Source of the DNA: Candidatus Aenigmatarchaeota archaeon
GTDB taxonomy: Archaea; Aenigmatarchaeota; Aenigmatarchaeia; CG10238-14; SCSR01
DNA: 17,944 nucleotides
NCBI GenBank assembly: GCA_039000165.1
Contig: JAWBTW010000014.1
Coordinates: 1-17,944 of the forward strand
Direction of reading: 5' to 3'
Position 1 is the stretch's first letter. Each line of letters opens with the position of its first letter. The notes under the pieces were generated by a model that did not search any database, was not told the origin of the DNA, and saw only the letters and a list, made by a program, of their open reading frames with translations. The position numbers were made by a program, and so were the translations under genes. This document shows positions 290 to 7,124 of the stretch, piece by piece.

Positions 290-1222
290 ATGATATTTCC
301 AAGGCGAATTAAAAATGAATTTTATTTTAACTTTCGACGTACCAAGAAAGAATTCAGCGCTAGAAAAGGCAGCAACAACTTTAAAAATTTATTTTCAGTT
401 AATGAAATTGTGAAAGAATTAAAAAAACTAGTAGAACACTTAGAAAGAAGATTTGAAAAAAACGGTAAAAATTTTTTAAGTGAAATCTACGAAACCTGTA
501 AAATTGTAAAAAAAGTTAAAAATGAAATCTCTTGTGCTGTTAGTAATTTTTTAAAATGTGACACGGAGGCTGACTTAATCTTCAGTATATCTCCTTTTAG
601 AGATGATGACGACTTGATTTCTTTAGCAAGCATTACTGCACGTTCCCGTTCTAACTTAACTCCAGAGAATTTCGAATATGCTGAACCTTATTACTGTATT
701 TGTGTAAATCCACTCGCATTAACTACTTACGCAGAAGAAGCTTTTCCGATTCCAAAAGAAAAATGCATAAAAGCTGTTTTAGCCGAGGAGTTTGCACATA
801 TTGGCATCGAGAAAAAATACAAAATGGAAAAGCTAAAGCTTGAAATTTTCGTAAACAAAAGATTCAAAGGTAAAAAAGTCCCTCTTTGGTATGTAATCGA
901 CTATCTCTACATATTAGGTGGAAAAGAAGAAGCTTGTGCTATGTATGTAGCTAATCAAATAGTTGGTTTTAAATTTTACACTCCTGATAATATCTTGGAA
1001 AATATTTCACAAATTGAAATAAGAGAAGAGGATTATTTCAAGATTGGTGGCAAATTAACTACATGTTTTGAAAAAGCTTTTGCAGCTTATCTTTTGAGAA
1101 GAATAAAGAACCAAAAAGATTTTGAAAATTTTTTACTTGGAATAGATAATGTTACCAAAGAAGAGATTAAACTACTAGAAAAATCTTTACTTCTAGCTGA
1201 TTACTTTAGACTAAAAGAATAA
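290..1222 (+). CDS. Hypothetical protein with a zincin-like EExxH motif; real start may be GTG at 410
   Basis: 310-aa ORF. VLAEEFAHI (785-799) and downstream EEACA (926-940) resemble a gluzincin HExxH...E arrangement. A TATA-like TTTAAAA at 381-387 lies about 25 nt before an in-frame GTG at 410. Confidence 0.6.
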   Translation: MIFPRRIKNEFYFNFRRTKKEFSARKGSNNFKNLFSVNEIVKELKKLVEHLERRFEKNGKNFLSEIYETCKIVKKVKNEISCAVSNFLKCDTEADLIFSISPFRDDDDLISLASITARSRSNLTPENFEYAEPYYCICVNPLALTTYAEEAFPIPKEKCIKAVLAEEFAHIGIEKKYKMEKLKLEIFVNKRFKGKKVPLWYVIDYLYILGGKEEACAMYVANQIVGFKFYTPDNILENISQIEIREEDYFKIGGKLTTCFEKAFAAYLLRRIKNQKDFENFLLGIDNVTKEEIKLLEKSLLLADYFRLKE

Positions 1223-6932: not shown

Positions 6933-6986
6933 AAAAAAGTGATTCGAGACTAAAGTTTAAATTTATATTTCTTCTTTCTTTAGAAG

Positions 6987-7124
6987 CGCCGGGGCTGGGA
7001 TTTGAACCCAGAAGGGGCAAAGCCCCAGTAGGTTTCTCAGAATTCAAGTATCATCATTATTCAGATACCTCAGGCTTCTTCATTCACTCGAGCCTACCGC
7101 GTTACCTTGTTCCGCCACCCCGGC
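6987..7124 (-). tRNA. tRNA-Ser(CGA) with a 53-nt intron at canonical position 37/38 (intron 7034-7086)
   Basis: Acceptor GCCGGGG/CCCCGGC plus discriminator G; anticodon stem GTAGG/CCTAC; loop CT-CGA-G^A; long variable arm GGGGC-TTT-GCCCC; T arm CTGGG-TTCAAAT-CCCAG. Strict bulge-helix-bulge: CUCG/UGAG central helix, two 3-nt bulges, GAAU/AUUC outer helix. No encoded CCA. Mature length 85 nt. Confidence 0.96.
7034..7086 (-). ncRNA. Putative C/D-box methylation guide sRNA formed by the tRNA-Ser intron
   Basis: C box AUGAAGA (7083-7077), 12-nt guide AGCCUGAGGUAU, D' CUGA (7064-7061), AUA, C' AUGAUGA (7057-7051), 10-nt guide UACUUGAAUU, D CUGA (7040-7037). Confidence 0.8.

Follow-up and report, generated by a model that had tools for sequence, protein, structure and literature searches.

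Among the papers searched, those that bear on box C/D RNAs carried by transfer RNA (tRNA) introns treat them as a special case, that of tRNA-Trp acting on its own tRNA, to which one putative tRNA-Met case is added (PMC4090602, PMC3491384), and the tRNA-Trp arrangement is termed unique in the part of PMC4090602 that describes it. Our literature search returned no description of a C/D RNA in a tRNA-Ser intron, nor of such RNAs in DPANN archaea beyond Nanoarchaeum. Reportedly, Renalier et al. described in 2005 a C/D small ribonucleoprotein (sRNP) that makes 2′-O-methylated cytidine 56 (Cm56) in Pyrobaculum aerophilum. The subject of the present analysis is a stretch of DNA of 17,944 nucleotides (nt), hereafter the window, which is contig C14 of the genome of a Candidatus Aenigmatarchaeota archaeon (G000; 783 kb in 25 contigs, 33% G+C, 91.6% complete). 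It contains a tRNA-Ser(CGA) gene whose intron has the layout of a complete box C/D small RNA (sRNA) with two guides, one before box D′ and one before box D. An earlier sequence-only reading had proposed that the D guide directs methylation of C56 on many tRNAs. Our results point instead to a live D′ guide directed at 23S ribosomal RNA (rRNA); we hold it to be the better-supported view, with moderate confidence, that the D guide beside it is drifting and probably an orphan.

According to the section of Lui et al. (2018, PMC6009581) that deals with target prediction, a credible guide assignment needs nine continuous Watson–Crick pairs near N+5, the guide nucleotide five positions upstream of box D or D′, and a Watson–Crick pair at N+5 is essential according to work cited there. 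The same source gives 28% of Pyrobaculum guides as orphans, some of which arose via a few substitutions in formerly dual-guide sRNAs.

A box C/D sRNA in the intron of tRNA-Ser(CGA)

The tRNA-Ser(CGA) gene went undetected in the window by default ARAGORN and by Rfam at gathering thresholds; ARAGORN intron mode and an E-value mode were needed. The Rfam tRNA model then scores 42 bits on 6987-7124 (gathering score 29) with a large anticodon-loop insert, and ARAGORN reports c[6986,7124], anticodon cga and i(37,53), that is, Ser(cga) with a 53-nt intron. We placed the intron at 7086-7034, which leaves CUCGAGA as the mature loop, to be compared with CUGGAGA in the intron-less tRNA-Ser(GGA); ARAGORN sets it one base earlier than this inspection-based placement. 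The intron reads UGA-AUGAAGA-AGCCUGAGGUAU-CUGA-AUA-AUGAUGA-UACUUGAAUU-CUGA-GAA, and the elements on which the argument depends are the following.

6986..7124, minus strand: tRNA-Ser(CGA) gene; long variable arm, single intron at 37/38 (Rfam tRNA model and ARAGORN intron mode)
7085..7094, minus strand: host anticodon region, G30 to intron base 2, GGCUCGAGUG; alternative target in cis, with C34 (7090) at N+5
7034..7086, minus strand: 53-nt intron, a complete box C/D sRNA (boundaries by inspection)
7077..7083, minus strand: box C, AUGAAGA (sequence and orthologues)
7065..7076, minus strand: D′ guide AGCCUGAGGUAU, 12 nt; predicted 23S target CUACCUCGGG (large-subunit rRNA, LSU, of G000, about 2730-2739), N+5 facing the second C of ACC
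7061..7064, minus strand: box D′, CUGA (sequence and orthologues)
7058-7060, minus strand: 3-nt loop AUA between D′ and C′ (sequence)
7051..7057, minus strand: box C′, AUGAUGA (sequence and orthologues)
7041..7050, minus strand: D guide UACUUGAAUU, 10 nt; N+5 is G at 7045, and the 3′ AUU lies in the outer helix of the splicing motif
7037..7040, minus strand: box D, CUGA, also one strand of the central helix of the splicing motif (sequence; inspection)
7000..7008, minus strand: host T-arm segment G52-U60, GGUUCAAAU, with C56 at 7004; proposed Cm56 target

The four boxes that characterize an archaeal C/D sRNA are thus all present (AUGAAGA / CUGA / AUGAUGA / CUGA), which bears out the sequence-only reading in its claim of a C/D guide RNA within a tRNA intron, and the guide spacers of 12 nt (D′) and 10 nt (D) fit the archaeal norm of about 10-12 nt. 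No curated Rfam C/D family scores above gathering, the values being 23.2 bits for sR12 (gathering 38) and 23.2 for snoPyro_CD (gathering 45); these scores bear on membership of lineage-specific families, not on the C/D class. A strict C/D pattern run over the 783-kb genome returned no locus besides this intron.

By inspection, the bulge–helix–bulge (BHB) motif at the splice sites is canonical. Its 4-bp helix CUCG/UGAG joins C32-G35 to UGAG (box D plus one base), the two 3-nt bulges are A36-G37-U and A-A-A38, and the outer helix GAAU/AUUC uses the last three bases of the D guide. The coordinates, sequence and N+5 assignment that had been given for the D guide are all correct, as is the reservation that its AUU end is constrained by splicing, since this end pairs with the 5′ GAAU of the intron in the BHB fold. 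The minimum-energy RNAfold structure of the intron contains a related helix, not identical to the BHB drawn by inspection.

The splicing endonuclease would free the intron at this motif, and the released sRNA could then assemble with L7Ae, Nop5 and fibrillarin and act in trans on the ribosome. All three proteins are encoded in G000, where profile searches gave 283.6 bits for fibrillarin (PF01269), 231.4 bits for Nop5 (PF01798) and 109 bits for L7Ae (PF01248), the fibrillarin and Nop5 genes adjoining each other on contig C6. The sequencing runs containing the window DNA bear the label hot springs metagenome, and the assembly may derive from some of them. In these runs neither a splice joint nor ends were seen, and they are without strand information. 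One contig from an RNA library (X9) aligns to the window; it is unspliced, has a depth of 4 and may be DNA.

Two guides that evolve in opposite ways

Orthologues were collected by BLAST with the pre-tRNA and then with a covariance model (R1) of the anticodon arm plus intron, which matches the sRNA in 35 of 118 genomes of the order; thirty orthologues were aligned. All four boxes are recognizable in most of them, degenerate D boxes (AAGA, GAGA) occurring in genus g31. Box C is AUGAAGA, AUGAGGA, AUGAUGA or AUGAUAA in most orthologues and more degenerate in three (GUGAAGA, AUGAGAG, AUGAUUA). The core of the D′ guide, G(A/G)GGUA, is kept in 30/30, and its last 7 nt take six forms, all of them G(A/G)GGUA(U/G/A). 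For the D guide, the last ten nucleotides make 22 distinct strings in the same 30 sequences.

The D′ guide pairs with 23S rRNA at GCUACCUCGGGGAUAAU (G000 LSU about 2730), three bases before the GGGGAUAA strand, with a duplex energy of -15.7 kcal/mol (this and all following energies at 37 C). Guide and LSU site were sought together in 16 genomes and both obtained from 15, the site of G006 not being matched by the search pattern. The core duplex with 23S GCUACCUCGGGGAUAA comprises 9-11 contiguous pairs in 11 of these 15 genomes; G037, G053 and G073 have 6 + 3 pairs around one mismatch. At N+5 the pair is G-C in 15/15. Guide and target also change together: all four g31 genomes with an LSU (G040, G045, G110, G111) have ACCCCGG in the LSU with GGGGUAG in the guide, and G108, of the same family as the g31 genomes, together with nine others has ACCUCGG with GAGGUAU. 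Judged from these sequences, the difference is a compensatory change from A-U to G-C, and we regard this covariation as the strongest evidence here for an rRNA guide that would work in trans. A complementarity to rRNA or tRNA that is conserved about N+5 was found for the D′ guide and not for the D guide.

Pairing of the D′ guide with 23S GCUAC[C]UCGGGGAUAA predicts that the bracketed C is 2′-O-methylated; it lies three nucleotides ahead of the GGGGAUAA strand of the peptidyl-transferase region. The site presumably lies near E. coli position 2440; a 261-nt query from domain V of the G000 LSU gave no match in E. coli genomes at blastn sensitivity. Downstream of GGGGAUAAU, at about 2740-2860 of the G000 LSU (C8 about 700-820, minus strand), the sequence departs strongly from what we take to be the archaeal consensus.

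Two other partners for the D′ guide were considered and set aside. On the host tRNA it has no site at threshold; AAACCU at the 3′ splice junction forms 5/6 pairs by hand, and this pairing does not follow the anticodon stems of the orthologues. The core AUACCUC had also suggested the 16S leader/trailer processing stem as a target, and this was dropped once the covarying 23S site had been found, the 7-mer occurring 58 times in the genome. The stem itself is formed by leader AGAGGUAU and trailer AUACCUCU (G000:C8:6312, minus; C8:7890, plus). Its leader strand is identical to the D′ guide core, and the guide could pair with the 16S trailer over 7 bp, probably by chance.

The public records in which this sRNA family occurs bear the titles 'Candidatus Aenigmatarchaeota archaeon' and 'uncultured archaeon'. 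A loose pattern scan of public contigs returned at least 120 stretches, mostly bacterial chance matches, with three real homologues among the 80 loci listed. In a record titled Methanothrix sp. MAG (locus L158, 102-143, minus strand) the scan came upon CUGAGGUAUCUGA-UAG-AUGAUGA, which scores 20.5 bits against the model; a euryarchaeal C/D sRNA may share the D′ guide, or the match may stem from the search pattern itself.

In G005 the sRNA lies outside any tRNA (L040, G005:C1:33580-33800, minus strand), between CCGAG and CUCGG, which form an anticodon-arm-like helix with the loop CUCAAG. It is situated about 70 nt upstream of a tRNA-Ser(CGA) gene having merely a short 12-nt intron. The locus may have been left behind by a tRNA copy that decayed, or it may be a free-standing sRNA processed through a BHB.

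The D guide and the T arm

In an ungapped alignment with the host T arm G52-C61 (GGUUCAAAUC), the D guide UACUUGAAUU gives the pattern ::|||||x|x, with G7045 opposite C56 (7004); over G52-U60 the pattern is ::|||||x|, that is, five Watson–Crick pairs and two terminal G.U pairs in the contiguous part, at -4.3 kcal/mol. The pairing that had been described from the sequence alone, 7 bp with GGUUCAA including two G.U pairs, C56 at N+5 and 9 bp with some loops, is therefore real and general: at least seven contiguous pairs form in the C56 register in 44/44 ARAGORN tRNA predictions of G000, and nine form in 3/44 (loops ..UUCAAGU / UUCGAGU). The accompanying warning that the duplex is short was equally apt. 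Counted as continuous Watson–Crick pairs, the match amounts to five in 33/44 tRNAs, three in nine and seven in two, the nine with three pairs having UUCGA loops in which G57 forms a G.U beside C56. The best T loop, that of tRNA-Tyr, reaches -8.1 kcal/mol.

These facts make it conceivable that the D guide acts in trans on T arms and makes Cm56 in place of a missing aTrm56, as the C/D sRNP of P. aerophilum, a precedent cited in a review (PMC7912444), does. The proteins of the RNP are encoded in the genome, and a hot spring is a setting in which ribose methylation of the tRNA elbow is thought useful, at least in the part of the review devoted to it (PMC7912444). The duplex nevertheless falls below the nine Watson–Crick pairs asked for in the corresponding section of PMC6009581, it would be weaker still at hot-spring temperature than at 37 C, and the T arm would have to unfold for pairing.

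Scans for targets were run first with a Watson–Crick pair demanded at N+5, a rule that hides an LSU site at 431-440, and then without it. They returned no perfect rRNA target of the D guide in G000; the sequence-only reading had named such a target as one that would refute its proposal. Near the D′ target, in domain V of the G000 LSU, nothing scored above 12. Genome-wide, perfect 10-mer targets of the D guide number two beyond the antisense strand of the gene itself, about the number expected by chance. A match to the T loop as good as the one observed, taken as a pre-specified site, occurs in 211 of 200,000 random AT-rich 10-mers. When the guide was shuffled 1000 times and compared with rRNA and tRNAs, 62% of the shuffles equalled the best T-loop score of 15, and 33% equalled the best ungapped score of 16, that of the LSU 431 site. 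Fifty chance 'box + 9-14 nt + CTGA' sites elsewhere in G000 score 8-19, and C56 stands at N+5 in none of these 50, so that no dedicated Cm56 guide was found among them. The match is thus rare for one named site and not rare for any tidy target, still less so given the relatives of the guide.

In the genus and its sister genera, the D guide is UACUUGAAUU in G000 and in G001, whose pre-tRNA is 98% identical, and these two are the only ones of the 30 orthologues with a guide of the T-loop type. It is UACUUAAAUU in G004 (pre-tRNA 97% identical), UACUUUAAUU in G005, UGCCUAAAUU in G035, UGGUUAAAUU in G075 and UCCUUUAAGU in G012; G002 has UGUUGGGCUU, a different sequence from that of the G000 group. 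The N+5 base is G in G000 and G001, A in G004, G035 and G075, and U in G005 and G012, these seven guides differing by point changes. With A in G004 and U in G005, C56 itself would be left unpaired. Two or three point changes separate the guides of the G000 group from that of G012; they have in common the 3′ AAUU, which closes the outer helix of the BHB. One base change from the UACUU[A/U]AAUU of relatives suffices to give the T-loop match.

Metagenomic data add some diversity at the same place. One contig over the window carries G075-type changes, including 7045 C>T. In the hot-spring run X8, window positions 7039-7083 are covered by two intron alleles, one G001-like (depth 41.7) and one G075-like (depth 6), the latter with CAGA as box D and A at N+5; relatives with differing D guides thus co-occur.

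Loss of aTrm56

The sequence-only reading had named the absence of aTrm56 as a finding that would favour its proposal. The gene was indeed not found in G000, and to that extent the expectation stood; the absence proved to be family-wide, so it is not tied to the guide. Among 60 relatives, PF01994 is present in 2/36 genomes of the same family, 0/5 other genomes of the genus, 9/9 of family f4, 0/3 of f2 and 2/9 of f5. From this distribution, loss of aTrm56 appears to be old and common to the family. Since the gene is missing in 34/36 other family genomes, its absence from G000 carries no special connection with the D guide.

Eleven carriers of the sRNA have no PF01994 (G000, G001, G002, G004, G005, G012, G015, G035, G037, G043 and G045). 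The T-loop-type D guide is found in two of these (G000 and G001), and in the other nine the D guide is unable to pair with C56. Conversely, R1 has no match in 59 of the 69 other family genomes searched, yet 34 of 36 tested are without Trm56. With 2/30 orthologues concerned, an N+5 that varies and shuffled guides that score as well, the idea that the intron guides C56 methylation on many tRNAs does not hold up as a general account, and we consider a Cm56 function of the D guide quite unlikely even in G000. An evolutionary form of the same idea, that after the loss of aTrm56 in the family a decaying second guide recently gained G at N+5 by one substitution in the G000/G001 lineage and so became a minimal pan-tRNA Cm56 guide of 7-9 bp, seems to us similarly improbable. 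Were it so, RNA-guided Cm56 would have been invented anew, and independently, by a DPANN archaeon of hot springs, with a tRNA intron as the source of the guide.

Targets in the host anticodon loop and at LSU 431

The D guide might alternatively act in cis, pairing with the anticodon loop of its own pre-tRNA-Ser from G30 to intron base 2 and directing Cm34, like the euryarchaeal tRNA-Trp intron. Of the host sites near positions 34 and 39, it finds one at which 9/10 positions pair (pattern ::x||:|||:), with G-C at N+5 opposite C34; the D′ guide finds none at threshold. At -6.3 kcal/mol this duplex is stronger than that with the host T loop, and the layout is as in pre-tRNA-Trp, where the relevant passages describe a 37/38 intron that holds a C/D sRNA and can either form the BHB or pair through its guide (PMC7994747, PMC4090602). 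Four of the nine pairs are nevertheless G.U, and a C32xA mismatch lies two positions from the target. Comparison among orthologues speaks more clearly: the N+5 pair is lost in G004, G005, G035 and G075 despite the same or nearly the same loop, the widespread D guides of the CGCUCUUGAU type are without such pairing (by inspection), and guide and host anticodon arm do not change together. The anticodon stems vary from one orthologue to another (GUAGG, CCGAG, CCGGC, CUGGA) with no matching change in the D′ core, and the sRNA of G005 is not within any tRNA. A cis-acting Cm34 guide is consequently very unlikely.

Another possibility is a persisting contact of the D guide with 23S AAUUUGGGUG (G000 LSU 431-440), where U435 would stand at N+5 and the guide would either direct methylation weakly or assist folding. 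The LSU is not assembled in G004, G035, G002 and G005, and the pairing of relatives' guides was judged on the G000 sequence. On that basis the guides of G000 and G001 (six Watson–Crick pairs, four G.U), of G004, which has A-U at N+5, and of G035 pair at 10/10 positions; the three substitutions that distinguish them (G/A, U/C, A/G) all preserve pairing, and the site is identical in G000, G001 and G049. Against this stand a G.U at N+5 in G000, a run of only four contiguous Watson–Crick pairs, an energy of -4.6 kcal/mol and the frequency with which shuffles equal its score. There is UxU at N+5 in G005 and a GxG mismatch in G075, and since the target consists largely of G and U, any transition in the guide would leave it paired, which makes the apparent compensation weak evidence. 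We regard a remaining function at LSU 431 as unlikely.

By the criteria of Lui et al., none of the three candidate targets in G000 qualifies as a credible one: the T loop offers five Watson–Crick pairs, the C34 duplex is interrupted by a mismatch, and the LSU 431 duplex has G.U at N+5.

A drifting guide beside a live one

In other clades the D guide has what appear from the sequences to be credible rRNA partners. It forms 11 Watson–Crick pairs with the organism's own 23S in G053 and nine in G049, and the guides of G037 and G006 form 10-11 pairs (one G.U) with 23S UAUCAAGGGCGC. The guide of G012 makes 10/10 pairs (nine Watson–Crick, one G.U) with 16S ACUUAAGGGA, the 16S used being that of G000, as the one of G012 is not assembled. 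The D guide may accordingly be seen as the fast-evolving second guide of the family, an ancestral dual-guide sRNA having slipped off its target in this genus by point changes. The 3′ end of the guide would be kept by the splicing helix, and the fit to the T loop with C56 at N+5 would be a one-base accident of drift and not a conserved Cm56 guide.

Several observations weigh against this interpretation. G000 seemingly has very few C/D sRNAs, among which a wholly idle guide may look wasteful. The G7045-C56 pair at N+5 is Watson–Crick in 44/44 tRNA predictions, and when such a pair is demanded there the best-scoring targets of the D guide are the T loops of three tRNAs. No rRNA target better than LSU 431-440, with its four G.U pairs, one of them at N+5, was found for the guide in G000. 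In this genome, 91.6% complete, the profile PF01994 yields 0 candidates for aTrm56, and tblastn with the Trm56 of another genome in the same family gives a best E of 1.7. The D guide is the same in G000, G001 and two metagenomic contigs (X9; X8 record 15), which makes it stable within a species-level lineage. As to the D′ guide, G075 breaks the covariation, its guide A facing an LSU C at position 6, in an LSU match that is only 72% identical. By a simple ungapped score the D′ guide is not above shuffles either, 56% of which reach it, and the case for it therefore rests on conservation and covariation rather than on score.

These points notwithstanding, a D guide drifting beside a live D′ guide is the interpretation that we favour. 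On this view the tRNA-Ser(CGA) locus is an intron-borne C/D sRNA serving the ribosome and not the host tRNA: an archaeal order with small genomes has retained, in a tRNA-Ser intron, a conserved guide that covaries with 23S rRNA beside the peptidyl-transferase strand. The case also illustrates that a 10-nt guide finds a tidy tRNA target by chance, and that it takes comparison among relatives to tell a live guide from one that drifts. Most of the family, moreover, appears to do without aTrm56, the usual Cm56 enzyme.

Other tRNA introns of the genome

The tRNA-Ser(UGA) gene of G000 (C1:43454-43599, minus strand; locus L034) also has an intron, of 59 nt, with the C/D-like boxes AUGAUAA, CUGA, AUGAUGA and UUGA. 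Its D′ guide makes nine contiguous Watson–Crick pairs with 16S GUCAAGCCA, on the decoding-centre strand CCGCCCGUCA, and its D guide makes eight with 3′-terminal 16S UCACCUCC. This intron is conserved in G001, G002, G004 and G012.

Several other tRNA introns (Trp, Cys, Leu and others) end, by inspection, in a common U(U/C)UGA...AGAUGA, which resembles a D′/C′ K-loop; they may be half-size guides. The positions are as follows.

C4:46763, C8:10369, C9:15028, C9:26832, C13:14410 and C6:33224: tRNA introns with U(U/C)UGA...AGAUGA (inspection)

In the tRNA-Trp intron of G000, CUGGAGC before the K-loop-like motif complements the anticodon loop, with C34 five bases before AUGA (likewise by inspection). 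At G000:C4:35665-36557, ARAGORN joins two tRNA-like halves over about 800 nt in which an open reading frame lies; the prediction may reflect a long protein-coding intron or else the erroneous joining of two genes. The two tRNA-Ser introns suggest that, where free-standing sRNA genes are almost absent from a genome, the few rRNA methylation guides left to it are carried by tRNA introns.

Comparison with known systems

The closest described system is the C/D RNA in the pre-tRNA-Trp intron of Euryarchaeota (Haloferax volcanii; sR50 of Pyrococcus). As it is presented in the pertinent parts of PMC7994747 and PMC4090602, that system shares with the tRNA-Ser(CGA) intron a complete C/D sRNA in a BHB-flanked 37/38 intron, and the guide and splicing conformations use common nucleotides in both. 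Its active form is an RNP containing L7Ae, Nop5 and fibrillarin (PMC7994747, PMC4090602), an assembly that the tRNA-Ser intron would likewise form. Unlike in the tRNA-Trp system, the host here is tRNA-Ser(CGA), the conserved D′ guide targets 23S rRNA in place of host C34 or U39, the guide that might reach C34 is not conserved, and one relative, G005, has the sRNA outside a tRNA.

With the Cm56 sRNP of P. aerophilum, as mentioned in a review (PMC7912444), the D guide has in common that C56 stands opposite N+5 in a genome without aTrm56. It differs in that the duplex consists of five Watson–Crick and two G.U pairs and that the guide is unconserved in Trm56-less relatives. A second small-genome DPANN archaeon, Nanoarchaeum equitans, has a stable C/D-like RNA in the intron of a tRNA other than tRNA-Trp, namely tRNA-Met (PMC3491384). 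Apart from the host tRNA, the difference is that the RNA of N. equitans figures in the portion of that report devoted to it as a putative sRNA with no confirmed target named, in contrast to the conserved, covarying 23S target found here.

The orphan guides of Pyrobaculum offer the nearest parallel to the behaviour of the D guide. In the families discussed in the relevant section of PMC6009581, one guide stays on target and the other sinks below threshold by few substitutions, and mismatches at N+5 arise within otherwise conserved families, as they do here. What sets the tRNA-Ser(CGA) intron apart from them is that its diverging guide overlaps the splicing helix, which fixes its 3′ end.

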